DNA from: a virus
Direction: 5' to 3' (one strand)
IMG/VR virus record: IMGVR_UViG_3300044898_000015
Span: 1-43,766 of that record
DNA: 43,766 nt
In this document: positions 11,006 through 37,543 of the stretch, in pieces
Position numbering within the stretch: the first letter of the stretch is position 1
Layout: the number at the start of each line of letters is the position of its first letter
The notes under the pieces: generated by a model
The model's input: only the letters and a program-made list of their open reading frames with translations
Told to the model about the DNA's origin: nothing
Database searches by the model: none
Position numbers and translations under genes: made by a program

Positions 11006-11022
11006 CCCTGCCTCCTCTGACG

Positions 11023-11343: not shown

Positions 11344-11344
11344 C

Positions 11345-22800: not shown

Positions 22801-24485
22801 TTCGATCCAGCCATTGAGGCACGTTGAACGTACTCACCTAGACCAGAAACCCGCGACGTGGCGGTAATGGCTGAGAGCCCGAGTTCGTCGATCTTGATCC
22901 GCTGCTGCTCCGCGATCACCTGACGCGTCAACTCGAGCGCCTTCACAAACCGAGGACGCGGATCCGCAACAACCCGCTCCGCAAGCTTCAACGCCGCCAA
23001 CTGCGCACGATGCGCCGCCGGATCACCAACCTCCAAATCGATCATGTTCTGATGGAAAGACCGCCACGCCCCAAACGGGTTAGGGTCATCCGTCGCAAGA
23101 ACCTGGATCGCCTTCTGCTCACCAACCGTCAACCCGCGCACCCGTTCCGGCAACTGCTTATTGATCCGCTGGAACGCTGTCGCGGCCGTCTGCGTCCACC
23201 CCGCGACCTGATCGAGGTCGCGCTTCACCGTCATCTGGATCGTCGTTTCAATCCGTCGGCGTGCTTTCGCTTCGCGGCCGAGCTTGTTCTCGCTCGAGAA
23301 GTTCGCCTTGATCGGGTCTAGCGCGAGGTCGATGGCATCCTGGATTCTTCCCGGCCGAACAATCGACAGCAACCCCGCGGGTTCGTCGGTCCGTTCCGCC
23401 ATCCGCACGTTACGGGCGTTCACCAGCTTCCGCTGCGCCCACCTGAGCGACGGATTCTCGGTGAGCAACTGCTCCTCCGCGAAGCCTTGCTTGTCGAGTG
23501 TCGCGGTACCACCGACCGGGCGACGCGCCAACGCCTTCGCCGCCGCGAGACCGCCCTCATCAGCGAGCGCACGACCAGCCGCAGACACTCTTGCGACCGC
23601 GCCAGCACCCAACGACACCAGCCCGAGCGCGTCAAGGAACAAGTTCCCAGGGTTCTCTGCCGGATGCGTCACATCACGGACGACACCCTTTACAACGCCC
23701 TTGCCGATCTTCACGTTCGTCGAAACGATCGGCTTCAACGACCCCTGCTTGAAGGCTTCACCAATCGCGCGACCCTCAGCAATAGCGAGAGTCGGCGGGC
23801 CGAGCACCAAACCTGTAGCGGCCTGCTCACCCGCTAGCGCCAGTTCGCCGACAGCCTTCGACAAGAGCCCTGACGGGTTAGCGGACAGGCCCTGCTCAGC
23901 GAGCGTCACATGTGGTGCCACCCGACGCTGCGCCCTTACATACGCAGCCTGCACAAGCCGCGAATCCGGCCCATTCAACGCCGCGTCAATCATCTTGTGG
24001 TTAGCTGGGTCGAGGAACGCATACAACGAGTCATAGGTGCTGACATGGTTGAGAGCTTTGACGAGCAGTTGGGCTTGTTCGCGGTCAGGGTCAGGGTGCG
24101 GGTTCAGTGACGGTAGAACCGTTGGCCCATCAGTCGTTAGTGCTGTCCGTGCGCGCGCTTGCACCATCGTCCGTGGTGTCGCGGCGAGTAGTGGCCCGAA
24201 TCCCTCGACGGGTACGGGACTGCGGACGAGGTCAAGTGCAAGTCCTGGCGTGGGTCTCGTTCCTGTCGCGGCTGTGTGCGCGTCGGCTACGGCGTCGAGC
24301 CGGTCGTTGAAGTCTGTGATGGATCCGTTGAATCCGACGGCTTGCAACGCGGGGTGGGGTGGCCCGGTGGGGAGGGGGGCGGGTCCTTGCGGTGACCGGC
24401 CAGGCTGCTCTCGTGTCGGTGGTGTGACGGGCGGCGGTGACGGTCGTGGGGCTGGGGCGATCGCTACACCGGGATCGACAGGCAC
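19842..24485 (-). CDS. Giant 1547-aa virion-module protein (internal/ejection-protein candidate)
   Basis: A single uninterrupted ORF between the M23 peptidase and SLT genes and upstream of scaffold/capsid. No motif was recognised. Confidence 0.35.
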   Translation of the reverse strand: MPVDPGVAIAPAPRPSPPPVTPPTREQPGRSPQGPAPLPTGPPHPALQAVGFNGSITDFNDRLDAVADAHTAATGTRPTPGLALDLVRSPVPVEGFGPLLAATPRTMVQARARTALTTDGPTVLPSLNPHPDPDREQAQLLVKALNHVSTYDSLYAFLDPANHKMIDAALNGPDSRLVQAAYVRAQRRVAPHVTLAEQGLSANPSGLLSKAVGELALAGEQAATGLVLGPPTLAIAEGRAIGEAFKQGSLKPIVSTNVKIGKGVVKGVVRDVTHPAENPGNLFLDALGLVSLGAGAVARVSAAGRALADEGGLAAAKALARRPVGGTATLDKQGFAEEQLLTENPSLRWAQRKLVNARNVRMAERTDEPAGLLSIVRPGRIQDAIDLALDPIKANFSSENKLGREAKARRRIETTIQMTVKRDLDQVAGWTQTAATAFQRINKQLPERVRGLTVGEQKAIQVLATDDPNPFGAWRSFHQNMIDLEVGDPAAHRAQLAALKLAERVVADPRPRFVKALELTRQVIAEQQRIKIDELGLSAITATSRVSGLGEYVQRASMAGSKEELAAIPRPGLLGDEIGGIQNPGAFYLPLIPKGKPRRATSERLEAFSPQAGLGGIPMPSTPPELQHELTGSSIHAGDYRIDATSLAGETFARTVKAATKMNEWRRLWSAGTDTPKNLRFDRPVRDIKDFPDELRGIVNKALDAELTGEEALSLHPADIQELERFLFPGELINGRWRLDASISHVKWVDSRLLDRYRQPLPAAFRTTFQLLNEPFRDFALFLRPAYILNLLGNVGMGLIHQGILLPPNILRALRAESLYGQKVAQTLDALGGASGRSASYAVSNLGEGVGKIATTPGRVLARAWNTVTDQHLRRAAIIHELRRQLVDAGKDPNDLNGILFDDALKSARNEAVRRGNKAMVEFDNQTWLEREALRHLIFVYPWQSRALVWSIRSIVEHPTQAALLDQIGQQAEEEFPAVLKNVPQWFKQIGYVPLGYNKDGSPTVVNPSSINTFSTFAQLLYPLEAGFTSSKYSSLSDLFGPGATFLVHGATGKDQFGNTYPGSQWLGAAKEVWTQLPQLRNLNRKQSQPLKGLNLANRTTLVTQLNSALKETVFTPGWLSGYGGLIAGGLSPRGVNPQALEARWYRDLSFAEKHKVEMGLIRRALGLQADLVKQPLPAAVTEAVNLSGARQVAYDAMKHQLGRTPTVKEQLQADIALFADKAKLNGDDAALLLKKLGKLTDPIELDRFRAGLYDKYAAAKDLRLWDEQVRFVFSFRPEILKGKLFDLRVQGLAPAIKLPADQETLYAWGRKSLAFYTEAKQRAHTIAITTYTLPSERSAADAALRAWADQQDKPAVINGHTFPSPVRMAWANSTPTEQAQHLRSASTKSWGTLSNFDKTLLGAKPDPVVSEVWSTLDKWVADAQAQLPVGQHLPGNARPFWADVLAKRVPAFKRDLQLSRQILADRLQQLKPVKESPNSGLWTQLLSAASTRYKQLVGAGWSKSQAADQWRRNDVPQLQTWVAEHPGFAKEVATYGASFLASLVRS

Positions 24486-24487
24486 GT

Positions 24488-25162
24488 CTAGCCTCCGCTC
24501 GAGAGCGCGATAAGCCTCTGCGTATCCGGCGACAAGTTAGGGAGCGCCGCGATCGACTGCCACGAATCAGCGACGGTGCCCGAGCCGGGAAGGTAGTGCT
24601 GCGCGGTACCGGGCATCTCGACCGATGGGTCAGCAGCCCCGACCGGTGTGCCTAGCGACGGAGGTGCGAGCTGCTGCTGCGACGTATCCACAGGCGCGCT
24701 GACCGCAGACGTCACAGGAGCCACCGCGCCAGCAGCCGTATCCGGTGTCTTCGCCGCACCAACAAGAAACTGCGAGAACATCGGGCCGCCCTGATCATGC
24801 GAAAACTGTGGCGCACCATTCTTCGCCAAACCGATCTCGACCCAGCCGACAAGCGCATGAGCGTTCCCGCCCGACACCTTCTGCAACGTCGCGACCGTGT
24901 CACCAGCCGCCAGCTTCTGGCCCGGCCTCAAGTTCGCCGGACGCGCGTGACCGACATAGATCTGCTGCCCCTTATGAGGGCCGTCCGTCAGCGTGTAGTA
25001 GACGGCCCACCCGAATCCGCCGGGGTTTGGCTTAACCGCGTCTACGACGGCGTCACCGATCGCGACGACGTTCTGGCCGGGGTTGCCCTGGTAGTCGATG
25101 CCCTGGTCGAAGTGTTTCACTTTGACGTTAGACGGGACAGGGTTGACGTACTGGCTAGCCAC
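24488..25162 (-). CDS. M23/LytM-family peptidase, 224 aa
   Basis: HFDQGIDYQG, YVGHA and NAHALVGWVEIG fit the M23 H-x3-D ... H-x-H layout. The GTG 25162 start is preferred, because the 396-aa ORF has an Arg-rich, spurious-looking N-terminus. Confidence 0.6.
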   Translation of the reverse strand: MASQYVNPVPSNVKVKHFDQGIDYQGNPGQNVVAIGDAVVDAVKPNPGGFGWAVYYTLTDGPHKGQQIYVGHARPANLRPGQKLAAGDTVATLQKVSGGNAHALVGWVEIGLAKNGAPQFSHDQGGPMFSQFLVGAAKTPDTAAGAVAPVTSAVSAPVDTSQQQLAPPSLGTPVGAADPSVEMPGTAQHYLPGSGTVADSWQSIAALPNLSPDTQRLIALSSGG

Positions 25163-25520
25163 CGACGAGCCTTTGCGTCGCAACCTGCGCATACGTTTTA
25201 ACCAAGTCGGAAGCGCCAGGGATGGAGGCGATGCCTTGCCACCACTGCGCGAGCCTCGCGTCATACGGGAGTTCTTCCGGCTGCGGCTGCGCAGGCTGCG
25301 CGACGGCTGCAGCAGGCTGAGGAGCGTGCGTACCACGCTGCGCCTTCCGGCTGTCACGCTTCGGCGCCGCGATCGGACCGGCCGCGACAGCAGCACCCGC
25401 CATCGGCGCGGCCCGAGCGAGTGACGCGTCCTTGGTCGCTTGACCGTACGGCTCCTCATCGCCCCAGCCCGACCACGAATTGACGCCATCTGGATTGTTC
25501 GCAACACCAGGCCTCGGCAT
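25155..25520 (-). CDS. Hypothetical Ala/Pro-rich protein, 121 aa
   Basis: The ORF lies directly downstream of the portal gene. Confidence 0.5.
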   Translation of the reverse strand: MPRPGVANNPDGVNSWSGWGDEEPYGQATKDASLARAAPMAGAAVAAGPIAAPKRDSRKAQRGTHAPQPAAAVAQPAQPQPEELPYDARLAQWWQGIASIPGASDLVKTYAQVATQRLVGG

Positions 25521-27596
25521 CTAGGACGCCTGTCCGAGTAGCGACTCCGGTGTCGGCGGCGCACCACCCGACTGACCAGTACCGATCTCGGCGAACTGCT
25601 CCTTCGGCTCACCATCAACCGTGTGAAACACAACCGGGAACGTCGCAGCATCCTGCAACGGCTGACGGTCAACGTCATCGGTCACAGCGATCTCGACCGC
25701 GTCCGCCGTCGACCCCTTCACGACAATCTCGCCGATCAGATACGCCTTCCCTTGCAACTGCACGTTCTGGAACGCCGCCAACGCGTCCTGAAGAGAGACC
25801 CCGGCCGAAGGAGCGGCAACGGCCGGGGCACCGGGCGCAGCCTGTGTGGGCGCGCCAGCCTGCGGTACCGGGGCACCAGCGGGGAGCGGAAGCGCCGGCA
25901 CCTTGAACTGTCCGCCCGCGCCTGGCCCGGCGAAGTTACCGATCGGCTGGCCGCCCGGCCCTGCGGCGGGCGGGCCTGCGCCGAGCGCGAGCAAAGGATG
26001 AGGAGCAGCCGCGGGCAACGGCGTCGCCTCAATATACGACGTCGCCTTCCCAACCGCCACATCAGCAGCCTCCGGCGACGGATCCTGCTGCAACGCCGCA
26101 ACAATCGCACCGATCACCGCATCATCGATCACCTCCGTGACGATCTCCTCGTTCATCGCCTCCGAATCGCTAATCCCGATCTGCTCACGGCCCCAACCCT
26201 TCGACGTCAACCCAGCACCCTGAGCCTGCAACGCCATCACAAGCTTCCCGTGCATATCGATGTACGGCGAGAACACAACCTCGTTCCTGGGCGAACCGAT
26301 GATCTCCTTACCCTTAAACGACACCGAGAACTGGCGCGGATTCAAGTCGAGCATCGACTGCGGCTGCACACCCTGCAAATAAACCTGGTCGTTCGTGTAC
26401 ATCCGCTGGTAGATCGTAAGCGCCTTCTCGTTCCACGACTCCAATGCGCGACCGATGCCGCCGCCCTGCACCATCTCCACCAAACTCCCCGTACCGGCGC
26501 CCTGCAAAGCGTTCACGGCCTTACCCGTGATCACCGACGCATCGAACTGTCCGAAACTGACGTCCGGCATCGACGTGTCCTGCTTGATCGCCCGCTCGTT
26601 CTCCTGCAACATCGCGACGGCCTCACCCATCGTCGCCGTCGGCGGCGCAAGAAAATACGCCTTACCGCCAGGGTTCACACCGATCGTCGCGCCCGCACCG
26701 AAATCGATCGTCTCATCGAACTTCATCGGATCCTCAAGAATCAGCCGAGGGAACACGTTCTCGATCATCGCCTGCATCATCAGCGAGTAGAGCGCGTTCC
26801 CGGCCTCGACAAGGTTCACCGACTGCTCAACCGCACCATGATTCCACGGCTCACCCGGAATCTCGATGAACGGCACCTGGTCGAACAAGTTGAAGTTCAG
26901 GTCGTGCTCGACACCGTTGACGAGCTCCTCGTCGACCCACCGGTAGAAGCACTTGTCGTCGCTGTACTCAAGAATCTCGGCTTGTTTCGACTGGCCTCCC
27001 TCCTCGCCCTTCCCCGACCAGTTCGGGAACTGCCGTTTCGCGCGTGCGGCCGGCACCTTCCACGAAAAGATCACCGCGTCCATCCGTGACCCATCGAACG
27101 ACGGGACCGGGAACGCCCACTCCGGCGAACGGATCACCGACATCACTGTGTTCCGGTCGAAGTCGGGCCAGATGCCGTGGAAGCAGTCGCCCATCAGCGG
27201 GCCGAACCAGCCGATCTGGGTGAGGCTGCGGTTCATGTTCGCTTGCGCCCACGTCGCGTACAGCACCCGCTCCTTCAGTGCTGCTTGCGCTTTCGCGCGC
27301 CGCGAATCGGGTCTTTCCGTGAACGTCCGGATCATCGGCAGCGACGACAGATACGACTGGTACTTGACGCACACTTCGAAGACGAGGTTGCGGACGAGCT
27401 TGATGTCGGGGCCGACATCGGAGACGGGCCGTGAAATGTCGCGGAAGATGCTGGCTACGCCGCGGGCAGTGGAGTCGACCTCGTTCCAGTAGCGGCCATG
27501 GTAAAAATCGCGGAGTCTCCGATGGCTGTTGTGGCGTTCCTGGTAGTCGGGTTCGAGCTCTTGTTTTAGCGCTTTCGCGTCGGCGTATGAGATCAA
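25521..27596 (-). CDS. Portal protein (691 aa)
   Basis: Supported by size, position in the head module, and an N-terminal RRLRDFYHGRYW-type segment. The C-terminus is Ala/Pro-rich. Confidence 0.6.
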   Translation of the reverse strand: MISYADAKALKQELEPDYQERHNSHRRLRDFYHGRYWNEVDSTARGVASIFRDISRPVSDVGPDIKLVRNLVFEVCVKYQSYLSSLPMIRTFTERPDSRRAKAQAALKERVLYATWAQANMNRSLTQIGWFGPLMGDCFHGIWPDFDRNTVMSVIRSPEWAFPVPSFDGSRMDAVIFSWKVPAARAKRQFPNWSGKGEEGGQSKQAEILEYSDDKCFYRWVDEELVNGVEHDLNFNLFDQVPFIEIPGEPWNHGAVEQSVNLVEAGNALYSLMMQAMIENVFPRLILEDPMKFDETIDFGAGATIGVNPGGKAYFLAPPTATMGEAVAMLQENERAIKQDTSMPDVSFGQFDASVITGKAVNALQGAGTGSLVEMVQGGGIGRALESWNEKALTIYQRMYTNDQVYLQGVQPQSMLDLNPRQFSVSFKGKEIIGSPRNEVVFSPYIDMHGKLVMALQAQGAGLTSKGWGREQIGISDSEAMNEEIVTEVIDDAVIGAIVAALQQDPSPEAADVAVGKATSYIEATPLPAAAPHPLLALGAGPPAAGPGGQPIGNFAGPGAGGQFKVPALPLPAGAPVPQAGAPTQAAPGAPAVAAPSAGVSLQDALAAFQNVQLQGKAYLIGEIVVKGSTADAVEIAVTDDVDRQPLQDAATFPVVFHTVDGEPKEQFAEIGTGQSGGAPPTPESLLGQAS

Positions 27597-27610
27597 GGGG
27601 CTCCGATCCG

Positions 27611-28132
27611 TTAGCCGTTGTTGACGATCCGCGGGACGAACGCGGACGCGGCGGGCGTGTAGGTGATGTAGACCGCGTACTCGTTCGCGGTCGCCGACCC
27701 GGATCCGAACGGGTCAGGTGCCGCCCCCGTCGTGTACGTGATGCCTCGCGTATAGACCCCGGGGCCCGACAGGTTGTAGTAGACGAGCATCGAGTTCGAA
27801 CTGACCCAGAACGTGATCCAGTATTTAGCCGCGTTGGTGAGCGAACCCGTGACGGTGAAGTCGACCCAGGCACCGTTTGGTGAGCCGGTGCCGTCAGCGA
27901 CGGACACTTCCGACGACATCGAAACAAGCGCACCCGGAACGCCCGCGTTGTCGGCGTAGATGCCGCAACGATGGCCGATCGCCGACCCTGACGTGTTCTT
28001 GATGAACGCCGAGACCTTGGTCACGGTCCCCGCTTCTGTCATCGTGTACGGCCCGGAAGCAATCAGGTTGTTGGCGATCCCGTTGAGAACGTTGCCCGCG
28101 CCTGGGGTAGAGGTAGTGCCGAGGGTCGCCAT
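27611..28132 (-). CDS. Hypothetical beta-rich protein, 173 aa
   Basis: Clean ORF. Its Gly/Ser/Thr/Asn-rich composition is suggestive of a jelly-roll or lectin fold. Confidence 0.5.
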   Translation of the reverse strand: MATLGTTSTPGAGNVLNGIANNLIASGPYTMTEAGTVTKVSAFIKNTSGSAIGHRCGIYADNAGVPGALVSMSSEVSVADGTGSPNGAWVDFTVTGSLTNAAKYWITFWVSSNSMLVYYNLSGPGVYTRGITYTTGAAPDPFGSGSATANEYAVYITYTPAASAFVPRIVNNG

Positions 28133-28165
28133 CTAGCCGCTCACCCTTTCTCGTCGTATGCTTCG

Positions 28166-28885
28166 TTGGTGATTCAATCTGTGAAGGCCCCGCTGCGGCC
28201 CCTCTACAGGCGGCTCGTTGCTCGCAAAGCGGTCAACACCGTGAAACGTCGGCGGCCCGCCTCGATCGTCGACGAAGTAGACTTCGCGCTCAGCTTCCAG
28301 ATCCGGGGCGTCCCGATCATGCCGTTCCAGATCCGCGCCGAGATCGCGCACCTTTTGAAGCTCGTCGCTGCGGAGCAGCCTCGGACGGTGCTCGAGATCG
28401 GGACGATGCGCGGCGGAACCCTTCTGCTATTCACTCGTGTCGCGGCCGACGACGCTCTGCTTGTCACCGTCGACCTTTCGGACGAGACGCGCCGGGAGTT
28501 CGGCGGCGACAACCACGCCGCGAACGCACCCCTGTACCGAGCATTCGCGCGCGGCACGCAGCGCGTCGAATTCATCGCAGGCGACTCCCACGAACCCGAC
28601 ACAACCAAGCGCATCACCGACACGCTCGAAGGACGACCCGTCGACTTCCTGTTCATCGACGGCGACCACACCTACGACGGCGTCCGCTCCGACTACGAGA
28701 TGTATTCGCCGCTCGTCCGGCCCGGCGGCCTGATCGCGTTCCACGACATCGTTGACGGGCCGGAGGACGCTGTCGGTGGTGTCCCCAAGTTCTGGCGTGA
28801 GATCAAGACCGAGTCAACCTGCGAACTAGTCCAAGACTGGGGACAGGGCGGCTACGGGATCGGCGTACTACGAGCCGCGAGCTAG
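28166..28885 (+). CDS. Class I SAM-dependent methyltransferase (Methyltransf_24/CmcI-like, O-methyltransferase type)
   Basis: SAM motif VLEIGTMRGGT and FIDGDHTYDGVRSDYEMYSPLVRPGGLIAFHDI. It is on the plus strand inside the minus-strand late operon. Its TAG shares a CTAG with the TAG of the convergent gene. Confidence 0.75.
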   Translation: MVIQSVKAPLRPLYRRLVARKAVNTVKRRRPASIVDEVDFALSFQIRGVPIMPFQIRAEIAHLLKLVAAEQPRTVLEIGTMRGGTLLLFTRVAADDALLVTVDLSDETRREFGGDNHAANAPLYRAFARGTQRVEFIAGDSHEPDTTKRITDTLEGRPVDFLFIDGDHTYDGVRSDYEMYSPLVRPGGLIAFHDIVDGPEDAVGGVPKFWREIKTESTCELVQDWGQGGYGIGVLRAAS

Positions 28886-30570
28886 CCAGCCTTGTCTGCC
28901 CCGATGTCGGGGACCGATGTCCGCGTGACACCGTGGATGTCAGTAGCCGGGAAGGTCACGGGGTCGCCGTGGGCTTTCGCGCACGTATCCGAAGCGGAGA
29001 GGTCGTAGTTCCCGGTTGTATCACGCGACGCGTCCGTAAACGTCGGATTGCAAACCTGCGCACCAGTCGAGCCACTACAGCCGGTGTCGGAGGTTGATCC
29101 AAACGAGTTATAGGTATAGGTCAGGTTCCGGTTGACGTTCCCGCAGGTGTAGCTTCCGGCCCGGTAGATGACCCCTCGCGAGATACCGGGTGTTCCGCCG
29201 CACGACACATTGATCGCGCTCACGGTGTCGTAGTCGAAGACGAAGTCGTTGGTGCTTCCGCACGACGCTCCCGCAGTACCTACCGGGAAGATCGTAATGT
29301 CGTTTCCGCCCGCCTCAAGGTTTAGCCCCGTCATGGTGTTTTCGATCTGGATGTGGTCGAGTGGTGCGCCGCCGACGTTCGAGGCGAGGATGTTGCTGGT
29401 CGCGTTCCGGTAGAAGTGCGAGTTCTTGATGACGATGTTCGTGCCACCCGCGAGCTGCATCCCGTCCGTGTGCGGAACGGCACCGTTCGTGCAAGTCGTC
29501 CCCGAAGCAGCTCCAACGCTTGGGTCACGCCAACGATCGACGTCGTGGACGGTCAGATTGTCGAACGTCACATGGTCAGCCGCCCGCGAGGTCCCGTTCC
29601 CGAGGTCGAGCCGGTTCACCTGGACCCCGTCCTCCCACGTCCCCGGCGGGAACCCACCCACCGCGAGGCACGCGTGGAGGCCGCTCACCGTCACGTTCTG
29701 GATCAGGATGTTGTCGCCCTTGATGTCGAGCTTCTCAAGCCCGGTCGAGTTCTTCAACGTCACATTCGTGATCCACGGCGCATTAATGCTCGGCGTCTCG
29801 AGGTCAGCGCCGCCCCCGTCGTTCGCGTTCGCGCTAGACGCCGGGAAGTTGATTCCATCGAAGGTCACGTAGCTCGTATTGACGGTGAGCCCGGCGACCG
29901 TCAAAGATGCGCCCCCGTCCGGCTTGAACGAGACGACGCTCGTCCCCTTATTCACGTACGGGATCGTCTGGACGCCGTAGGTGCCCGACTCGACGAGGAC
30001 GAGGTCGCCGCCCGACGCCGCCACATACGCAGCGTTCAAGTCCGAGCAAGCAGCGGCATCGACGTAGGCGACCGGGGTAGCGCTCCGGGTGCAGGTGCCG
30101 CCGTTCGAGTCGACAAAGATGTTGCCAACCGGCGGGCCGCCGCCCTGTCCTGAGGTGACCGTTACAGACTCAGACGCCACGTTATGGTTGCCCGCCGCGT
30201 CGCGGCAATCAGCCGAAAGGGTGTAAGTGCCGTTCCCTGACGAGCTCGAATCCCAAGTGATCGCGTAAGGGAACACGGTGTCGTCGAGCAGGTTCGCACC
30301 GTTCAGCTTAAACTGCACCCCTGCGACACCGATGTTGTCGGTACACGTAGCGGCCACGTTGACGGAAGACCCGGAAACCGTCGCACCCGAGGACGGGTCG
30401 GTGATCGCAACGATTGGAGGAGTGCTGTCTCTTCCACCGGGAGATCCCACCGGGACCCCCTGCCCCCAACCATAGTAGCCACCCACAGTCGCGCCAGCAG
30501 CGGCGATAACAGCGGCCGTTACTTTCAGCTTCCGACCCCGAGTCCACGGGTTGAACGCGGATGGGCTCAC
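28882..30570 (-). CDS. Exported or anchored protein with an Ig-like domain and a right-handed parallel beta-helix (polysaccharide lyase/depolymerase-like)
   Basis: N-terminal signal/anchor RGRKLKVTAAVIAAAGATVGGYYGWG and an Ig-like segment VNVAATCTDNIGVAGVQFKLNG...YTLSADCRDAAGN. It also has repeated beta-helix rungs such as NVTLKNSTGL, ILIQNVTVSGLH and IVIKNSHFYRN. Confidence 0.6.
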   Translation of the reverse strand: MSPSAFNPWTRGRKLKVTAAVIAAAGATVGGYYGWGQGVPVGSPGGRDSTPPIVAITDPSSGATVSGSSVNVAATCTDNIGVAGVQFKLNGANLLDDTVFPYAITWDSSSSGNGTYTLSADCRDAAGNHNVASESVTVTSGQGGGPPVGNIFVDSNGGTCTRSATPVAYVDAAACSDLNAAYVAASGGDLVLVESGTYGVQTIPYVNKGTSVVSFKPDGGASLTVAGLTVNTSYVTFDGINFPASSANANDGGGADLETPSINAPWITNVTLKNSTGLEKLDIKGDNILIQNVTVSGLHACLAVGGFPPGTWEDGVQVNRLDLGNGTSRAADHVTFDNLTVHDVDRWRDPSVGAASGTTCTNGAVPHTDGMQLAGGTNIVIKNSHFYRNATSNILASNVGGAPLDHIQIENTMTGLNLEAGGNDITIFPVGTAGASCGSTNDFVFDYDTVSAINVSCGGTPGISRGVIYRAGSYTCGNVNRNLTYTYNSFGSTSDTGCSGSTGAQVCNPTFTDASRDTTGNYDLSASDTCAKAHGDPVTFPATDIHGVTRTSVPDIGADKAG

Positions 30571-31430
30571 GGAGACGTCCAGGTCGTACGCACCTCGGAC
30601 CCCTTCGTCCCGGTCCCAGCGACATCACAGTCGAAGTGGAGCTTGTCTCCCGCCGCAACCGTCTGCGAACCGTCACTCTTGATGACAGCCGGAGTCGCAG
30701 CAGTACGAGACGACGTCTCGTTCGCGTCGATGGTGATGTTCGTCGTCAGCATCTCCGTCGAGTTCTTACGAAGACCGAGTGACGGCAGCCCCGACGACGA
30801 AACGGTCTTAACCGTCCAAACGGCGCCGGTGAGTGACCATCCGTCGAGGTCGGCCCCGACCTCGTACGTGTAGGAGGCGAAGTCCTCGGCGACCGCGAGC
30901 GCAGTACCGTCAGCGATCAGCACGAACTCTTTCGTGATCGTCGCCGCAGCCGGAATGACGAGTCCTCGCATGTTTAGCAGGTAGCCCGAAACGCTTGAGT
31001 CCGCGTGCAGCAACGGATGCGAAACCTGACCCGCCGTCGTCGGCTCAGTCGCCGTCAACGCGCCCGCCGTAACCGGGTCGAGGAAGTAGTCGCTCCCCGG
31101 CGTCAACCCCGTCAGACCGGTGAAGTAACCGCCGATCTGGATCGTGAACGCGTTCATGCCGCCGACAGCGGAAACGAGCCCGTCAACGTCCGAGTCGGCC
31201 GCGACATCCGCCTTCGCGGTGACGTACTTCGCCTGGCCGTTGTCGAAGCGTACGGCCTGGCCGACTGTGAACCCGTGCGCGGTCTGCGTGACCGCGTGCG
31301 TGATCGCGGTACCAGACGTCGCGCTCGCGTTCGAGATCGTCTGCAGCTCCGCGACCGCGTCAGCAAGCCGGTTCAGAAACTGGGTGCTCCAGTCAGACCT
31401 GTCAGTCGGAGACTCAACCGCGGTCGCCAT
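30567..31430 (-). CDS. Tail-fibre / receptor-binding-like protein, 287 aa
   Basis: AHGFTVGQAVRFDNGQ.YVTAKAD...VDGLVSAV...GSDYFLD resembles a fibre-domain pattern seen in prophage tail-fibre proteins. Confidence 0.4.
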   Translation of the reverse strand: MATAVESPTDRSDWSTQFLNRLADAVAELQTISNASATSGTAITHAVTQTAHGFTVGQAVRFDNGQAKYVTAKADVAADSDVDGLVSAVGGMNAFTIQIGGYFTGLTGLTPGSDYFLDPVTAGALTATEPTTAGQVSHPLLHADSSVSGYLLNMRGLVIPAAATITKEFVLIADGTALAVAEDFASYTYEVGADLDGWSLTGAVWTVKTVSSSGLPSLGLRKNSTEMLTTNITIDANETSSRTAATPAVIKSDGSQTVAAGDKLHFDCDVAGTGTKGSEVRTTWTSP

Positions 31431-32980
31431 CAGACCGGCCCCTGCTGCGCGTACGCCGGGTTACGAATCACCCGGCGCGAAATACGACGATTCCACATCG
31501 GCGCGTCCTTCTGTAGACGGTTCAAAGACCCGAACTTCGGCATCGACTCCTGCAAGGCCCGATAGGCGAACCACATAGCCATGACCGTGTCCGTAGTCCG
31601 GCCGGGATACTGAACAAGCTCGTCAACGAGCACAGCCATCTTCCGCTGCGAGTGCGCGTCCGCCCACGGGATATGCACCGCGCCACGCTCAAACCACGGC
31701 GACATCGACTGCACCCCCAGCTCCGGGTCAGGCTTGTTCACGCGCGTGGTGTAGTGCGGCTCGATCCGAAGCGCCTTGTCCTGCGCCTTCAGCTTCGACT
31801 CAACCTCCTGGGCGAGCCCCGCCTGGAACGAGTTAGCCTCGATCTTCGAGATCAGAAGCTGGTACTCCTCATGCTTCGAGATGATCGTGTCCACCTGCTG
31901 CGGCAACGTCCACTGGTCCCGCTCAAGATCGACCACCCAGAAGCAGCGGTCATGCAGAACACAAGAGCCGGCCGCAAGCACCAGGTGCGCGCAGAACTTC
32001 GCTGACCGCGTCAACCCCACAGCCGGGTCGAAACCGCCTACACGCTTCCAGTGCGTCTCGTAGCCGCCCACGGAGTAGCTGCGATCCAGGCAGCCGGGAA
32101 ACTCGACCGGCCCGATCGTCCCGCCCTTCACGTACTCCTCCTTGAACACCATCCGCGACGCGTCAACGGCGATGTTCCGGTACCGCTTGTTGAAGTTCAA
32201 AGTTCCCTGCTTCGCCTTCTGCTGCATCAGACGCTTCCACGGCCACCGCTCCGGCCACAACGTCTTGTGCTCCTCCTCGTCAACGATCGCGTCCTCGAGC
32301 TGCAGCTTCCAGAGGTTGCCGCCCTCGAACTGCATCCGCTCCAAATCCGCGTACAAGTCAGCAGGGTCGAACCGTGTGCCAACAACGATCAGTTGCGAGT
32401 CCTGATGCTCCGGCCCCGTCTCGACGCACAAGTCGAACCAGTCGCGCAGCTTCCGCCTCTGCTCCGGTGTCGCGCTGTTCTTGTCGGTGACGACGTCGTC
32501 GCAGATCGTCAGATCGGTGCGGTAACCGAGAACCGTTTTCGCGCCGGAACCGAACACCGTGATCGTCGGCTCCTTCGCCCTCCGCGTCCGCTTCTGCACC
32601 GACATACGACCCAACGCCCACGGCTTATCGTCCTGCGAGTCCGGCTTGAACGGGCCGAAATCACGGATCAGCTCCGTGTTGTCGGTCAACTCCGACTGGA
32701 TCACCGCCATGATCCCTTCGGTCTCCGTGTCGTTCTTACCGATGATCACGATCCGGACGTTCGGGTCCTTGCAGATCCGCCAGATCGGAAGCAGCGTCGA
32801 CACAATCGTCGTCTTGCCGTGCGTCGCGGGATAGAGGATGAGCGCGCGCACGTCCGTGCTCGCGGTGTGGATCAGTCGAAGGTGGAACTCTTCAAGCTTC
32901 GTGATCCGGTGCGGAAAGTAGCGCACTATGAACAATGCGGGGTTGTCGAGTAGTAGCTGGCGTTGCGCCTCGTCGATCAC
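31430..32980 (-). CDS. terL: Terminase large subunit
   Basis: Walker A-like YPATHGKTT, Walker B LTICDDV, coupling motif VVGTRFDPADLY, and a C-terminal nuclease-like half with GGFDPAVG. Confidence 0.85.
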   Translation of the reverse strand: MIDEAQRQLLLDNPALFIVRYFPHRITKLEEFHLRLIHTASTDVRALILYPATHGKTTIVSTLLPIWRICKDPNVRIVIIGKNDTETEGIMAVIQSELTDNTELIRDFGPFKPDSQDDKPWALGRMSVQKRTRRAKEPTITVFGSGAKTVLGYRTDLTICDDVVTDKNSATPEQRRKLRDWFDLCVETGPEHQDSQLIVVGTRFDPADLYADLERMQFEGGNLWKLQLEDAIVDEEEHKTLWPERWPWKRLMQQKAKQGTLNFNKRYRNIAVDASRMVFKEEYVKGGTIGPVEFPGCLDRSYSVGGYETHWKRVGGFDPAVGLTRSAKFCAHLVLAAGSCVLHDRCFWVVDLERDQWTLPQQVDTIISKHEEYQLLISKIEANSFQAGLAQEVESKLKAQDKALRIEPHYTTRVNKPDPELGVQSMSPWFERGAVHIPWADAHSQRKMAVLVDELVQYPGRTTDTVMAMWFAYRALQESMPKFGSLNRLQKDAPMWNRRISRRVIRNPAYAQQGPV

Positions 32981-33180
32981 TTAGCAGGCTTCTTGGTTCC
33001 GACCCTCACGATCGCCGGAGGAGCCTCGCCGAGCCACCGCTCGTTCTGCATCTTCAATGCTTCCTCCATCTGCGGCATGACGTTCGGCGGCCCATCACGT
33101 TTCACGACGGGCGACGGGTTGTCGTGCGCTTGGACGTGCGGGGGTGTCGGGTTTTTACGCCCGTATTTCGGAATCGCCAT
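32977..33180 (-). CDS. Hypothetical basic protein, 67 aa
   Basis: GGAGG RBS upstream. GTGA junction with terL. Confidence 0.5.
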   Translation of the reverse strand: MAIPKYGRKNPTPPHVQAHDNPSPVVKRDGPPNVMPQMEEALKMQNERWLGEAPPAIVRVGTKKPAK

Positions 33181-33189
33181 TCCGGCCTC

Positions 33190-33354
33190 CTAGCTGTGCT
33201 GGACCGCGTGAGCGGCGTGCGCGTTCAAGTTCGACTCCCACCGCGAGTTGACAAGCGCGATGTTCACGCCACGCTTCAAGGTGCCGCAGTCAGGACACGC
33301 CGCAAGCTTCTTGTCGAAGAACAGCGAGCACACCTGACAGCGAAGAAACGTCAC
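33190..33354 (-). CDS. Possible 54-aa zinc-ribbon protein (below the ORF-track cutoff)
   Basis: Hand translation gives VTFLRCQVCSLFFDKKLAACPDCGTLKRGVNIALVNSRWESNLNAHAAHAVQHS (CxxC...CxxC). Confidence 0.4.
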   Translation of the reverse strand: MTFLRCQVCSLFFDKKLAACPDCGTLKRGVNIALVNSRWESNLNAHAAHAVQHS

Positions 33355-33358
33355 CGGT

Positions 33359-33553
33359 CTACGTCACCGAAATCTTGTCGAACGTAGCCGCGGTAACACC
33401 AGTCCGCGGCGCCGCGATCTTGCTGTCGTTCCGCTTCAACGCGCCACGCGCAAGCCACACGTCAGCATCAGCCGACGACGCGAACACCAGCGTCCGCCCG
33501 CTCACATGGACAACATCCTGTTCGTCACGGTTCCAAAGGATCGTCTTCGCCAT
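33359..33553 (-). CDS. Hypothetical protein, 64 aa
   Basis: Clean ORF. Confidence 0.5.
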   Translation of the reverse strand: MAKTILWNRDEQDVVHVSGRTLVFASSADADVWLARGALKRNDSKIAAPRTGVTAATFDKISVT

Positions 33554-33562
33554 AGGTGTCTC

Positions 33563-33865
33563 CTAGTCCGCAGTAGCTATGAGCGCGGCCTCGAGCGCCG
33601 CTACTTCTTCGCGTAGACGCGTGATCTCTTGCCGCAGCAGCCGTTGACCTTCCGCTTTCGGGAGCGCGTCAAGCTGGTCGATCACGCTGAACGGTTTGCT
33701 GTCGTCTTCGTCGTCGGGTGACGCGGGTGGCACGAGCGCGGCGAGCGCCTTCAACGCCTGGACGAGCGCTATCCCTTTGAGGCCGCTGCGGTTGTCGTAG
33801 AGCTGCTTGAGCAGCCCGTCACGCATCTCCTCCGGCGTGACAGCAACGTCAGCGTCGCTTTCCAT
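33563..33865 (-). CDS. Hypothetical helical protein, 100 aa (small-terminase candidate by position only)
   Basis: ATG 33865. The protein has a coiled-coil C-terminus, and the longer ORF has an Arg-rich, spurious-looking N-terminus. Confidence 0.45.
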   Translation of the reverse strand: MESDADVAVTPEEMRDGLLKQLYDNRSGLKGIALVQALKALAALVPPASPDDEDDSKPFSVIDQLDALPKAEGQRLLRQEITRLREEVAALEAALIATAD

Positions 33866-34034: not shown

Positions 34035-34314
34035 CGGCCCTCCGCGCGCCTGCAATGGCGATGCCCTTCTTGTCGTCGCGCGAGCATCCGAGAATGAAGT
34101 CGTAATTGTCCTCGATTCTGGCTAGCGCGATGAAGCTGGGGCGGACCGTTTTACTGCTATCCGTCAGCCAGTCTGTTTCGACGAACTCGCGCGTCCGACG
34201 TATTTCGTCGAACTCTTCCTCCGAGATAAGACGAATCTCGCCGCTACTAGCAATCGGCGTCTTGAAGTAACCACCCTGCTCGGTGGTGTAGATGAGCATG
34301 TGCGTACCGTTCAT
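34024..34314 (-). CDS. Hypothetical 96-aa protein in a visibly lower-GC segment
   Basis: Clean ORF. A hand count of four 60-nt lines gives about 50-60% GC, below the surrounding sequence. Confidence 0.55.
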   Translation of the reverse strand: MNGTHMLIYTTEQGGYFKTPIASSGEIRLISEEEFDEIRRTREFVETDWLTDSSKTVRPSFIALARIEDNYDFILGCSRDDKKGIAIAGARRADAA

Positions 34315-34961
34315 GCCGCGCTCCTAACTCGCTGTGTTGCATCCGCTTGCCGCTCCTGATTCACAACAGAATCCGTCGAGTCGTGAGCCGTGTAGATGTA
34401 CAAGACGTCGCGCGTCCTGGCAGGCTCCGAATGCTTCAGAAACCGCGTGTACAGGTCGAAGTCGGCAGCACCATCGAAGCTGGAATCGAAGCCCCCAAGA
34501 GCATCGGTGAGAGACTTACGCCAGTAGACGGCGCCGCCAAGCATGTACTGGCCGTGCCTGGTCGCCTCAACGTCAGCCCAAGTACCGCCGCGCAACGCGA
34601 CCGGCATCCCGGACGGATCAACGAGGACAGTCCTGCCGCACAACCAGTCCGCGTCACCGATCGTACGGTCTACGGTTTGAAGCGCCCGTCTAGAAAGGCG
34701 GTCGTCGTCTGAGAGCGGGTGTACGAACTCGCCGTTCGCCAGATCGAGCGCAGCTTGAAAGTCGGCTGCCGGGCCGTGCGACTCGCCGCGGACATACCGG
34801 ACACGCGGATCAACCGGGACCAGATCCTCGACCGGCTCCTCGCCGCAGTCGTAGACGATCTGCTCCCAATCAGTGAACGACTGGTCGAGCACCGAACGGA
34901 TGCAACGACCGATCCACTCCGGCCTGTCCCGCGTCGGCGTCAGCAACGAGAATCTTGGCAA
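34311..34961 (-). CDS. Family-2 (GT-A) glycosyltransferase
   Basis: FSLLTPTRDRPEWIGRCIRSVLDQSFTDWEQIVYD and the DxD region HPLSDDDRL. TTG start with GAGGAG upstream. Confidence 0.75.
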   Translation of the reverse strand: MPRFSLLTPTRDRPEWIGRCIRSVLDQSFTDWEQIVYDCGEEPVEDLVPVDPRVRYVRGESHGPAADFQAALDLANGEFVHPLSDDDRLSRRALQTVDRTIGDADWLCGRTVLVDPSGMPVALRGGTWADVEATRHGQYMLGGAVYWRKSLTDALGGFDSSFDGAADFDLYTRFLKHSEPARTRDVLYIYTAHDSTDSVVNQERQADATQRVRSAA

Positions 34962-35811
34962 GTTCTTCTCCTCGTCCGGAAGCGTCGAAGTTTTCGAGGT
35001 GGCGCGTCAACGCCTGCCCATTCATCCCCGGCTTCCAATGCGCGTTCGCGTAATCGTCACGCAGCTTCTGCACCGCCCGCGCAACCTGCCGGCCGGTTAC
35101 CGGCTGCCGCGGAACCACACCACCCAACCGGCCAAGAATGTCGAGAAGCTCCCGCGACCCCAGCCACTGATAACCGACCTCAATGTCACGGCCGACATAG
35201 TCGTCGCCGTCACGCGACCAGTCGTCGATCGCGTCCATCGGCCGCTTACCCGTCCGATAATTCAAATGCTCGACCGTCACATGGCCCATGTACCGGTGCA
35301 GGTTGTGCGGCTCAACGATCCGGCACCACGCGACATCGATGAACGCCTGACGGACACCCGGAAGCGCCCACCAGCCGACAGTCCTGACGAGCTCGCCGCC
35401 CCAGCAAAGCCCGGACGACAGATTCGTCCCGTCCTCGAGCTCTGCGAGCAGACTCGGCGATTCGCTCAACCACATGTCTCGCGCGTACGAGAGACACCAG
35501 TCGGCCGCCGCGTCCTCCAGCAGTTTGTCCCATCCCGTTGTCCGCGGCCTCACGTCGTCGGCGAGCCACCCGTACTGGGCCGCGTCCGGATAGTTGTCGT
35601 AGCACCACGACATCGACGCCTGCAACGATCCCCACACGGGTTCGTAATGGATGCTCCAGTTCGCGGGTAGCCGGATGTCCTGGTACTCGTCGACCGTTTC
35701 GTCAACGTAGACGACGCCGGGCGACGTCATCCCGGTTGCTTCGCACGCGTCCAGCGTCTCCTGGCACTCCTTCGGCCGTCCCCGCGTCGATAGAAGCCAG
35801 ATCGCGTCCAC
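34870..35811 (-). CDS. Divergent glycosyltransferase-like protein, 313 aa
   Basis: The N-terminus AIWLLSTRGRPKECQETLDACEATGMTSPGVVYVDE resembles a GT-A beta1-alpha1-beta2 unit. LADDVRP is a possible DxD. Its 3' end runs 92 nt into the next gene. Confidence 0.4.
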   Translation of the reverse strand: MDAIWLLSTRGRPKECQETLDACEATGMTSPGVVYVDETVDEYQDIRLPANWSIHYEPVWGSLQASMSWCYDNYPDAAQYGWLADDVRPRTTGWDKLLEDAAADWCLSYARDMWLSESPSLLAELEDGTNLSSGLCWGGELVRTVGWWALPGVRQAFIDVAWCRIVEPHNLHRYMGHVTVEHLNYRTGKRPMDAIDDWSRDGDDYVGRDIEVGYQWLGSRELLDILGRLGGVVPRQPVTGRQVARAVQKLRDDYANAHWKPGMNGQALTRHLENFDASGRGEELAKILVADADAGQAGVDRSLHPFGARPVVH

Positions 35812-35923
35812 CAGACTTGTACTTCCTTTCGCATTTGTGGCGGATGATCGCGAGGTTCACGTCGATCGGGGTGGCGCCGTCGCACTCGAAATCGCAGAAC
35901 AGACACGACCCCGAGTAGGTCAT
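35702..35923 (-). CDS. Small Cys-rich ORF (CxxC...C...H..C)
   Basis: ATGA junction with the upstream GT2 gene. The first ~37 codons have high third-position GC. The remainder runs 110 nt into the next gene with poor codon bias. Confidence 0.4.
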   Translation of the reverse strand: MTYSGSCLFCDFECDGATPIDVNLAIIRHKCERKYKSGGRDLASIDAGTAEGVPGDAGRVRSNRDDVARRRLR

Positions 35924-36495
35924 GCTGCTGCAAGGTGGCGGTTACGCGAACCAGGCTGCACCCGGTACGACCAGAGCACTTCAGGCACAAGCTTGAACAC
36001 CGCGGCCGCTCCCAAACACAGCTTCCAGAGCTCCCAGTCCTCGCCCGGCTGTAGTCGCTCCGGCGGCTCCGGCCAGCCACCCAACTCCTCCACCAACGAC
36101 TTACGCACGCACGCTGTCACCGGGATGAAGTTCCCCCTGAGCAGCAACGCGTCGTTGAACAACCGGTTCGGCGTCCAATCCGGCAGCCCCTCAACCCGGC
36201 ACCACGAATACACCACATCAACATCGGCCGTCAGGTACGGCGCGATCGTTTCGACGTAGTCGGGGTCGAGCGTGTCGTCGTCATCGACGGGAAGGACCCA
36301 GTCGCCCTTGGCACGTCCGACCATCCGGTTCCGAAGAACACTCGGGCCGGACCCGTTGACGTCCGTCTCGACAAGGTGCTCACAGACTGGGACGGTTTGT
36401 GCCGCCACCGACGCCTTGCACTCATCAAGCAGCCCCGACCGCGACACGACTGTCGGCGTGATCACCGAGATGCTCGTACGCGTCGCTCCACTCAT
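35920..36495 (-). CDS. Family-2 (GT-A) glycosyltransferase
   Basis: ISVITPTVVSRSGLLDECKASVAAQT...EHLV and WVLPVDDDDTLDPD. AAGGAG lies 9 nt upstream of ATG 36495. It overlaps the upstream gene by 71 nt. Confidence 0.75.
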   Translation of the reverse strand: MSGATRTSISVITPTVVSRSGLLDECKASVAAQTVPVCEHLVETDVNGSGPSVLRNRMVGRAKGDWVLPVDDDDTLDPDYVETIAPYLTADVDVVYSWCRVEGLPDWTPNRLFNDALLLRGNFIPVTACVRKSLVEELGGWPEPPERLQPGEDWELWKLCLGAAAVFKLVPEVLWSYRVQPGSRNRHLAAA

Positions 36496-37543
36496 CCGCC
36501 CCAACTCCTTGAATGACATGCTCCGCAGCTTTCGCTCGCGCGTTCTCGCCCATCTCCCGCCACGACACCAACATGTCGTCCAACGCGTTACGCCACTCCC
36601 GCGGCTTATCGCACCTAGCAAGCAGCCCATTCACGCCAGGCTCAACCCACCACCGGTACGACTCCGACGGCCCCGCAACACACGGGATCCCACACGCCGC
36701 ATACTCAAGCCCCTTCAAATGCGACTTCGCCTCCGTAAACCTAGACTGCTCCAACGGCACCAGGCCGATGTCCATCACCGCCGTGATGTCAGCCAGATCG
36801 AGCTCGTGGAAATGCGTCGGCATCACCGACACCCGCTGACCGGGAGGGACACCGATCATGTCGTGCACCAACGGGTCGCCGGCAGCAACGAACTCCACCT
36901 CCGGATGCTGTACGAGCCACGGGCCGATCACGCCGCGCAACACCGCAAGATCGCCGCGACGCCACCGCGAATCACCCATCCAGCCGACACGCACCCTCCG
37001 CGTCTCGCGTTCGTACGCCAACGGCGCGTCAACCCACATCCCCCAATCCAGACGATTCCGGATCACCTGAACGTTCTCCTGGTACGGCGCGTACAGGTCC
37101 GCGAGTTCCGGTGTCGCGACCGTCAACCCGTCCGCCGCTCCAAGCATCGCAAGCATGTTCGCCCGCATCTCCGGCGACTTCCGCGCACCCGGATTCGACA
37201 AAGGCAACCTAAGCCAGTCATCGTCGGAATCGACCAGCACACGCTTCCCCTGCTCACGCAACCGGCCGATCACATCCGCCCAGCCCGGCTCCTCACGCTG
37301 ATTCAAAACCAGCAGATCAAACTCCTCATCGAGGAGCCACTGGTCGATCCCCTTCACCAACCGCACACCATCCGGCGCACGCTGGAACACCCCGTAATGC
37401 ACCTTCAGCCCGCCCTGCAACGGCTCCACTAGCCGCGGCACCTGCGCGACGGTGTGACCACGAAGGGCCATCTCACTCGCTGGAAACAAGACCCTGTAAA
37501 AACCCGAGCCGTCGAAGTTCGAGGGGAGAGCAACGATCCTCAC
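36425..37543 (-). CDS. GT-B fold glycosyltransferase (GT1/GT4-like)
   Basis: MRIVALPSNFDGSGFYRV and the C-terminal TEAKSHLKGLEYAACGIPCVAG...EPGVNGLLA (E-x7-E-like region). Confidence 0.7.
   Translation of the reverse strand: MRIVALPSNFDGSGFYRVLFPASEMALRGHTVAQVPRLVEPLQGGLKVHYGVFQRAPDGVRLVKGIDQWLLDEEFDLLVLNQREEPGWADVIGRLREQGKRVLVDSDDDWLRLPLSNPGARKSPEMRANMLAMLGAADGLTVATPELADLYAPYQENVQVIRNRLDWGMWVDAPLAYERETRRVRVGWMGDSRWRRGDLAVLRGVIGPWLVQHPEVEFVAAGDPLVHDMIGVPPGQRVSVMPTHFHELDLADITAVMDIGLVPLEQSRFTEAKSHLKGLEYAACGIPCVAGPSESYRWWVEPGVNGLLARCDKPREWRNALDDMLVSWREMGENARAKAAEHVIQGVGADEWSDAYEHLGDHADSRVAVGAA

Follow-up and report, generated by a model that had tools for sequence, protein, structure and literature searches.

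Why do four genes lie between the large terminase (TerL) and portal genes of the virus in IMG/VR record IMGVR_UViG_3300044898_000015, and what might they do together? The record was analysed over its whole length of 43,766 nucleotides, which we call the window. The interval contains open reading frames (ORFs) for a fibre-like protein of 287 amino acids (p287), a 562-residue protein with an immunoglobulin (Ig)-like domain and a beta-helix (p562), a methyltransferase dependent on S-adenosylmethionine (SAM) and encoded on the opposite strand, and a 173-residue protein predicted to form a beta-sandwich (p173), all four of which are present where a sequence-only reading of this DNA had placed them (Table 1). 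The interval is most likely a hypervariable glycan-recognition cassette, possibly with an exported depolymerase, together with a moron-like sugar methyltransferase working with the glycosyltransferase (GT) cluster of the same genome. Comparison with other contigs shows the 3.8 kb to be a mosaic cassette for the recognition and degradation of glycans at a hot spot flanking the portal gene, with an antisense sugar O-methyltransferase gene inside it; the fuller interpretation, which assigns a role to each of the four proteins, we hold with slightly less than even confidence.

That the interval is an insertion is apparent from relatives in which the TerL-portal junction is intact, in agreement with the expectation of the sequence-only reading that these two genes are normally adjacent. 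In L001 (TerL 62% and portal 68% identical to those of the window) the two genes overlap by 4 nt, and they are also adjacent in L130 (49% and 49%) and L180 (58% and 51%). In L002 (61% and 49%) the slot holds a 192-aa protein and a 526-aa Beta_helix protein that are non-homologous to the window genes; the similarity of the 192-aa protein to p173 is borderline (E 0.016), and homology is not established. A homologous Big_7 beta-helix cassette lies directly 3' of the portal gene in L179 and L180, its protein sharing 41% identity with p562 across residues 48-240, and in the same position L130 encodes a putative polysaccharide lyase and a LamG-like protein, functions guessed from sequence motifs only. 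Thus 4 of the 5 other contigs of the lineage (L002, L130, L179 and L180, which are all those with enough sequence to judge) carry a glycan-acting cassette beside the portal gene, and because these cassettes differ among lineage members, the portal flanks appear to be a variable locus for genes acting on envelopes and glycans. The description of the interval as an accessory island therefore stands as far as insertion is concerned, while "accessory" is too strong a word for a type of cargo that nearly all of these contigs possess. Since such cassettes recur in the lineage and no other fibre was recognised in the window, the locus may be the normal, hypervariable host-recognition site of this phage. 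More distant relatives, with TerL about 27% identical, have an Amidase_2-like endolysin in the TerL-portal gap (L003, L005, L006, L024 and L027, assigned by eye from an HHTAG motif, and Streptomyces phage Immanuel3 at 2661-3425, assigned from the record annotation), which makes the slot a general cargo site in the clade.

The three minus-strand genes of the cassette also recur together far from this lineage, in unrelated metagenomic phage contigs. The full trio of fibre, beta-helix and p173-family genes is found in L039/L040 and L128/L129, fibre and beta-helix genes are followed by a different third gene in L038, L041 and L127, and a p173 homologue follows the beta-helix gene in L043 as it does in L039 and L128. 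The first module gene of L038, L039, L041, L127 and L128 encodes a protein to which p287 is 51-74% identical, with the C-terminal 245 residues of p287 reaching 75% identity to L039, and p562 is 65% identical to L039_507 over its first 52 residues, beyond which the two are no longer homologous. Because the closest relative is a different one for each window gene, the cassette is a mosaic. To judge from these loci, the trio is a recurrent unit with conserved junctions and exchangeable specificity domains, a pattern known from receptor-binding complexes, and in view of it the earlier argument that p562 is not a tailspike is not established. The junctions themselves are tight: TerL and p287 overlap by 1 nt, p287 and p562 overlap by 4 nt (GTGA) in a manner that implies translational coupling, and p173 ends 14 nt from the portal gene. 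In L041, L127 and L128 the module adjoins Collar-domain fibre genes and lysis cassettes.

p287 matches no Pfam or PHROG family itself, and its designation as fibre-like is borne out by its 145 homologues, which combine its central domain with tail-fibre domains and whose partner domains include Collagen, Collar, DUF2793, Mtd_N, Phage_fiber_2, K1-lyase_C and CBM_5_12. Two parts of the protein are conserved, the central domain (residues ~40-150) and a C-terminal beta-sandwich-like domain (~165-287), and the N-terminal ~40 residues vary among phages, as would be expected of the end that attaches to the virion. Searches of phage records returned only a 70-residue match in cyanophages, and searches of PDB sequences returned nothing significant with p287 itself; with a profile of its homologues the best PDB match was the sugar-binding domain of PNGase, at a weak E of 0.08.

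The architecture proposed earlier for p562, an Ig-like domain followed by a beta-helix, is upheld by a Big_7 match (PF17957, residues 52-120, E 7.9e-16) and by an AlphaFold2 (AF2) model with a mean pLDDT of 69.7 and a core at 80-94, in which the Ig domain precedes a right-handed beta-helix. The Big_7 domain is 45-63% identical to those of secreted bacterial proteins (subtilases, chitodextrinase). The modelled beta-helix has the fold of polysaccharide lyases and hydrolases: its nearest solved structure in Foldseek is the PL9 pectate lyase Pel9A (1ru4, E 7e-5), followed by RG lyase 5olq, GH87 and phage depolymerases, and many of its BFVD matches are annotated as tailspike or structural proteins. 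Invariant columns in the family include an HTD motif (H367) and a C-terminal D..G..R..D.GAD signature. The catalytic part consists of the Ig domain and beta-helix, with no muralytic (lysozyme-type) catalytic domain, and ahead of Big_7 no particle-binding domain was found by Pfam, PHROGs or NCBIfam. The closest full-length relative (P0008 / L037_538) is 39% identical over 99% coverage, and tblastn against phage records gave no match. A public gene call (P0001) that starts 71 codons downstream and yields a 491-aa protein was rejected, as it cuts Big_7 and drops residues 1-52; the long form is taken to be right because this N-terminus is conserved in homologues.

Whether p562 is exported or docked to the virion turns on this N-terminus. 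Residues 1-46, modelled at a pLDDT below 35, contain a basic cluster, RGRKLK (R11-K16), and then an uncharged Gly/Ala-rich segment (V17-W35, VTAAVIAAAGATVGGYYGW); the segment is 61% G/A/S/T, with 3 K/R and no D/E ahead of the uncharged stretch, and its hydrophobicity is weak (KD18 1.33, additive Hessa dG about +5). The combination of a basic cluster and a weakly hydrophobic Gly/Ala-rich segment is kept in all 12 beta-helix relatives compared (KD18 1.3-2.1), including those with another upstream gene and another sequence (L037, L043, P0038 and P0060), and it is missing from two control beta-helix proteins, from p287 and from p173. Because the property is kept without sequence conservation, it fits a signal peptide or an anchor of the signal-anchor-release (SAR) type better than a docking peptide. 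We therefore give somewhat better than an even chance to the prediction that p562 leaves the cytoplasm by way of a signal-peptide or SAR-like segment. The signal or anchor proposed in the sequence-only reading is in this respect strengthened by a family-wide export-like property, and the low hydrophobicity leaves it plausible.

A distant analogue was seen in a 32%-GC metagenomic contig (L173:123-1628), where a 501-aa beta-helix-type protein encoded right after a p287-type fibre C-terminus has a classical Sec signal peptide (MFKRLLLIIVFLLFSVNCFA, followed by AD). This protein matches L037_502 (E 1e-7), and its homology to the p562 family is not significant (E 1.1). Small signal-peptide proteins occupy the same post-fibre position in L140, L156 and L166. 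The closeness of the p562 Big_7 domain to those of secreted bacterial enzymes also speaks for export.

The p173 family, represented by p173 and P0184-P0331, comprises 1411 clusters when counted at E<=1e-3, or 290 under the stricter limit of E<=1e-10. Pfam has no match for p173, nor did any of its families cover this domain when ten multi-domain relatives were scanned. The family includes standalone proteins of ~170 residues and proteins of 500-1800 residues with 2-5 tandem copies, and the multi-domain relatives carry AIR9-type Ig, Polysacc_lyase or GDSL lipase domains. The AF2 model of p173 is a beta-sandwich of low confidence (pLDDT 57), with CBM6/35, a gingipain adhesin and a phage fibre CBD as best Foldseek matches, all at E >5e-3. 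The third-gene products, although they fall into at least two unrelated families, share the C-terminal motif FVP[KRE]I[LVI]x[YN] (SAFVPRIVNNG, GLFVPKILNYRTA and AVFVPEIVTYG, for example), as seen in p173 of the window and at L039:10233-10760, L128:4968-5495, L038:3699-4409 and L127:5746-6444. This tail may serve for docking.

The fourth gene stands apart from the trio by its orientation, and it is the only plus-strand ORF in the window with any domain support. Its earlier description as a SAM methyltransferase antisense to the late operon is confirmed. It matches Methyltransf_24 (PF13578, E 4e-19, 69.8 bits against a cutoff of 26.3), RMNT_CmcI (PF04989, E 3e-11, 43.9 bits against 23.2) and Methyltransf_3 (PF01596, E 3e-6, 26.9 bits against 22), its PDB sequence matches are O-methyltransferases throughout, and its SAM motifs VLEIGTMRGGT (75-85) and VDL (D103) align with PDB 2gpy. 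By these matches the protein is a class I methyltransferase of the sugar O-methyltransferase type (Methyltransf_24/CmcI); its score for the rhamnosyl O-methyltransferase equivalog NF045824, 20.5 bits against a cutoff of 400, is too low to assign a substrate. A role as DNA methyltransferase, suggested by a phrog_2675 label, was rejected, given that the Pfam and PDB matches are all to O-methyltransferases and that three bona fide DNA methyltransferases are encoded elsewhere in this genome. IMG/VR contains 232 relatives, none above 41% identity, and tblastn against 50,697 phage records found cyanophages and uncultured phages only, with no mycobacteriophage at E<=1e-5.

The methyltransferase gene is a secondary insertion into the cassette, because it fills exactly the gap between beta-helix and p173-family genes that adjoin or nearly adjoin elsewhere: in L128 and L039 the homologues of its two neighbours overlap, and in L043 only 250 nt lie between them. 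The same slot bears an antisense insert in another phage, since the 250-nt gap of L043 (3240-3490) holds a small opposite-strand ORF for a one-helix membrane peptide (MVIAVVVLATVGGVIALTLAWWIWKKDWPTL). In L039, too, the module has an antisense neighbour, an unrelated FkbM/Methyltransf_21 methyltransferase (10747-11484, minus strand, E 3e-18) that faintly resembles V. cholerae RfbT and whose gene runs 14 nt into that of the p173-family protein, and PIG-L, Methyltransf_23 and WbqC genes are found just upstream of the fibre gene there. A recent foreign origin of the window gene was rejected on composition, its GC and GC3 being like those of its neighbours; like the rest of the genome, all four ORFs show GC1>GC2<<GC3, their GC3 being 0.78-0.83. 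Antisense orientation was likewise rejected as a trait of the family, in which it is confined to one lineage (4 contigs) among 64 IMG/VR relatives.

Independent expression of the methyltransferase, as proposed in the sequence-only reading, is a plausible prediction. The gene and p562 converge with a 4-nt overlap, and their stop codons share the palindrome CTAG as had been read, which leaves no room for a terminator between them. In the 33-nt spacer to the divergent p173 gene, the one hint of a start signal is a TATGCT hexamer resembling a -10 element 6 nt ahead of the GTG at 28169, and the Shine-Dalgarno sequence of p173 (GAAAGGGTGAG, minus strand) is found in the same spacer. No Shine-Dalgarno sequence was seen there for the methyltransferase, so a leaderless mRNA is possible.

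The GT cluster has homologues in L001 (54-68% identity), L002 (39-45%) and L130 (37%). Among the 80 best relatives of the methyltransferase, 10 have a homologue of the window GT1 (36425-37543) within 500 nt on the same strand, several of these contigs being near-duplicates, and it is this adjacency in other phage contigs that ties the methyltransferase to the cluster, its likely functional partner on the evidence of gene neighbourhoods. The beta-helix protein cannot be tied to the GTs in the same way, because the cluster is kept in L001, L002 and L130 whatever cassette lies beside the portal gene. Of the earlier suggestion that both p562 and the methyltransferase act jointly with the GTs, only the methyltransferase half is favoured by recurrent GT1 adjacency; for the beta-helix protein, retention of the GTs without the cassette in L001 and L130 leaves no such tie. 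The methyltransferase was not found in the examined parts of L001, L002 and L130. With GT1 as query, tblastn returned Arthrobacter and Streptomyces phages and one uncultured phage only.

If the cassette is a glycan-recognition and degradation unit, then p287 would be the virion receptor-binding protein for a host surface polysaccharide, and p562, exported through its N-terminal segment, would cut that polysaccharide in the infected cell's envelope, which would either aid release or destroy receptors that could trap progeny and superinfecting phages. The glycan would be bound by p173, and the methyltransferase would O-methylate a sugar of a glycan made by the phage's own GT cluster. Our leaning is that the methyltransferase is expressed in the prophage state and modifies a glycan of the host envelope, because the gene is antisense to the late operon in a phage predicted to be temperate, a tentative preference that we hold with rather less confidence than an even split would imply; a virion glycan is a still less probable target. 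Combining all of these elements leads to a recurrent, so far undescribed module: a virion fibre gene would be coupled in translation to the gene of a beta-helix glycanase, either Sec-exported or SAR-tethered, and joined by a new domain of carbohydrate-binding-like type; the enzyme would strip the fibre's receptor polysaccharide from the infected cell, and in this phage an antisense, prophage-expressed methyltransferase would methylate the same glycan, shielding lysogens from the enzyme and from related phages. As a complete scheme this is improbable.

A number of observations pull against the interpretation that we prefer. With a KD18 of 1.33, the N-terminal segment of p562 lacks the hydrophobicity needed for a stable transmembrane helix, and the extreme N-terminal SAFNPW is kept only with a p287-like upstream gene, which fits docking or linkage. 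Close coupling of translation to that of a fibre gene, as p562 has it, is usual for components of virion complexes. The failure to recognise another fibre or spike gene in the window favours a virion role, and the presence of a portal-side cassette in every sufficiently sequenced member of the lineage suggests that these are essential virion receptor-binding proteins. The likeness of p173 to carbohydrate-binding modules is weak, below significance in the model comparison. As for independent expression of the methyltransferase, its GC1/2/3 of 0.69/0.44/0.81 lies within the range of the flanking genes, and 52 of the 64 IMG/VR relatives are co-oriented with both neighbours. A sigma-70 scan of 27000-33600 gave no promoter-like site, though the host may use another promoter type, and terminator-like sites around the gene were not above chance; barring an undetected internal promoter, the late transcript would cross the methyltransferase gene in antisense on its way to p173 and the portal gene. 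Finally, Alphaproteobacteria are suggested as host only by a single prophage in a metagenome-assembled genome (MAG).

The trio could also form an ordinary virion receptor-binding complex, with p287 as adaptor fibre, p562 as docked enzymatic tailspike and p173 as distal adhesin. In this case the N-terminal ~45 residues of p562 would dock, the hydrophobic segment would lie inside a trimer interface, export would play no part, and the result would be a branched tail appendage like that of branched tailspike systems. Conserved junctions around swapped specificity domains are what such a complex would produce, and the modules of L041, L127 and L128 sit in the canonical tail-fibre position, next to a Collar fibre and a lysis cassette; the co-occurrence of SAFNPW with p287-type upstream genes, the persistence of a portal-side cassette in the lineage with no other fibre recognised in the window, and the tailspike or structural labels of BFVD matches point the same way. 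The N-terminal property, however, outlives changes of both upstream gene and sequence, as targeting signals do, the distant analogue in L173 has a textbook Sec signal peptide, and no particle-binding domain of known type was detected, and on balance we consider a complex of this kind rather unlikely. An involvement of p562 in lysis, as a SAR-type membrane-tethered depolymerase that is freed at holin depolarisation and clears wall or capsule polysaccharide, would make the TerL-portal slot the lineage's slot for envelope enzymes. The Amidase_2-type endolysins that fill this slot in the wider clade (L003, L005, L006, L024, L027 and Immanuel3) would then find an explanation, as would the SAR-like composition of the segment (61% G/A/S/T, weakly hydrophobic) and the GH25/amidase and small transmembrane (holin-like) genes that abut the modules of L041, L127 and L128. 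It would leave the coupling to a fibre gene unexplained, the fold is that of a polysaccharide lyase or hydrolase with no muralytic domain, the hydrophobicity falls below that of known SAR domains, and the window has other lysin candidates in its M23 and NlpC/P60 proteins. We give it only a slim chance.

For the methyltransferase, the competing explanation is glycosylation of the virion, in which it and the four GTs would build a methylated O-glycan during lytic growth, with the capsid or the adjacent proteins of the fibre cassette as targets, by analogy with cluster O/F mycobacteriophages, and the antisense orientation would be incidental. There is precedent for this in cluster O mycobacteriophages, where an O-methyltransferase and three GTs modify capsid and tail tube according to PMC11600133 (citing Freeman 2023). 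The GT cluster has the look of a lytic-cycle locus, being conserved and co-oriented upstream of the packaging genes in the window, L001, L002 and L130; relatives of the methyltransferase adjoin GT1 homologues in other phages, and in L039 an unrelated antisense FkbM methyltransferase adjoins the same module. A host methyltransferase of the same superfamily, 'MepM', is reported to be required for methyl/HexNAc modification of a mycobacteriophage tail protein (PMC13445384), and 'MepM' is MSMEG_6482, listed as the orthologue of the sugar 1-O-methyltransferase MeT1 of the methylmannose polysaccharide pathway (PMC9883506); this dependence may act through a methylated sugar rather than by direct protein methylation. 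Late co-expression is disfavoured by the 7.5 kb between methyltransferase and GTs and by the orientation of the methyltransferase gene, antisense to the late transcript, and the kinship with mycobacteriophage systems does not extend to sequence: tblastn gave no mycobacteriophage match for the methyltransferase (E<=1e-5), GT1 matches only Arthrobacter and Streptomyces phage GTs, and the examined parts of L001, L002 and L130 have the GTs and no methyltransferase that could be found. Virion glycosylation is thus a minority possibility, about as doubtful to us as the docked complex.

Each known family with which these genes can be compared fails here on at least one defining feature. Modular and branched tailspike cassettes share with the window a beta-helix of lyase-like fold, a conserved N-terminal ~50 residues with swapped catalytic parts, coupling to a fibre gene and replacement of the cassette between close relatives. 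They differ in that the N-terminus of p562 looks membrane-targeting rather than like a folded particle-binding domain and in that the cassette lies beside terminase and portal genes and not at the end of the tail genes. Genes that modify or block receptors are found near receptor-binding genes in other phages, as with T5 Llp by pb5 and O-antigen conversion genes near P22-like tailspikes. The window resembles them in having a candidate exported protein and glycan modifier beside a receptor-binding gene of a temperate phage, with one gene running counter to the late operon, but its proteins are not homologous to Llp, GtrABC or Oac, and the candidates here are a protein of depolymerase fold and an O-methyltransferase. 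With SAR endolysins (P1 Lyz, phage 21 R) p562 shares a basic cluster and a weakly hydrophobic Gly/Ala-rich segment; unlike them it has an Ig domain and beta-helix instead of a lysozyme, and lower hydrophobicity. The methyltransferase belongs with MeT1/'MepM' to the class I O-methyltransferase superfamily, with D-x-x-H and acidic motifs (FIDGDH, HD) and a local match (E 2e-5) to PDB 6g7d, an entry titled only 'Methyltransferase domain protein' that we take to be the structure of M. hassiacum MeT1; the match is local, covering 49 residues, and the window gene is phage-encoded. Virion glycosylation loci of mycobacteriophages, as described in PMC11600133, likewise combine a phage-encoded O-methyltransferase with several soluble GTs, and the window departs from them in having the two 7.5 kb apart on opposite strands, with no detectable sequence similarity.

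The interest of the locus rests mainly on the export-like N-terminus shared across the beta-helix family and on the unnamed p173 domain family. If the beta-helix family is truly exported, its members would be phage depolymerases that act from inside the infected cell and not from the virion, and both the annotation of these genes, now routinely as tailspikes, and the mining of them for enzymes would change. The p173 family, at about 1,400 clusters, is a sizeable unnamed domain found in extracellular glycan-acting proteins, and with the antisense sugar methyltransferase and the conserved GTs, phage-directed glycan methylation could be put to the test outside the actinobacteriophages. Should all of this prove wrong, what remains is a hypervariable receptor-binding cassette that includes a moron, which is common in temperate phages.

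Table 1. Positions of the terminase-portal interval, its parts and other features in the window.
Feature	Position	Strand	Remarks
TerL, large terminase	31430..32980	-	phrog_38, E 6.5e-69; upstream boundary of insertion
p287, tail-fibre-like, 287 aa	30567..31430	-	
p562, export-like segment, Big_7 Ig and right-handed beta-helix, 562 aa	28882..30570	-	
p562 codons 11-35, candidate signal peptide or SAR-type anchor	30466..30540	-	
p562 Big_7 Ig-like domain, residues 52-120	30211..30417	-	
p562 beta-helix domain, about residues 150-500	29071..30123	-	
Predicted class I SAM O-methyltransferase, 239 aa	28166..28885	+	antisense to surrounding operon
CTAG with overlapping convergent stops of p562 and methyltransferase	28882..28885		
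33-nt spacer between divergent p173 and methyltransferase starts	28133..28165		
p173, predicted beta-sandwich protein, 173 aa	27611..28132	-	third gene of module
Portal	25521..27596	-	phrog_64, E 6e-13; weak SPP1_portal match; downstream boundary of insertion
Glycosyltransferase cluster (GT2, phrog_14945 GT, GT2, GT1)	34311..37543	-	
Tyrosine integrase	1335-2480		
Xre-type HTH regulator (HTH_3)	7962-8381		
SU10-type major capsid protein	14804-15943		

The window as a whole is 43.8 kb at 63% GC, with genes nearly all on the minus strand. An exact 17-nt direct repeat (GCTCGGTTCTCGGCCCG) at both ends (1-17 and 43750-43766) suggests a circular assembly and a complete genome of ~43.75 kb. The phage is temperate by its gene content, encoding an integrase and an Xre-type HTH regulator, and its predicted type is that of a temperate, podophage-like genome with an SU10-type capsid. 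One relative, L130, was itself met as a prophage, in a contig of 192 kb from the MAG of an uncultured alphaproteobacterium. A DNA similarity search against the 50,697 phage records gave no match, an IMG/VR search with the major capsid protein brought up no further part of the L002 contig, Rfam and tRNA scans of the window returned no matches, and PDB sequence searches gave no significant match for a 613-aa and a 458-aa protein.

The three DNA methyltransferase genes (614-1291, 3323-4249 and 4322-4984), two of C5 type and one of MT-A70 N6 type, are clustered beside the integrase gene. An M23 peptidase gene followed by one for a 1547-aa protein occupies 19842-25678, and such a pair, with a domainless protein of 1500-1650 residues, is kept 3' of the portal gene in the lineage (37-40% identity), as at L002:19087-21531 and L179:6577-12202; these are probably internal or ejection proteins. 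A 396-aa ORF (24488-25678) overlaps another at 25155-25520, so the M23 gene probably starts internally.

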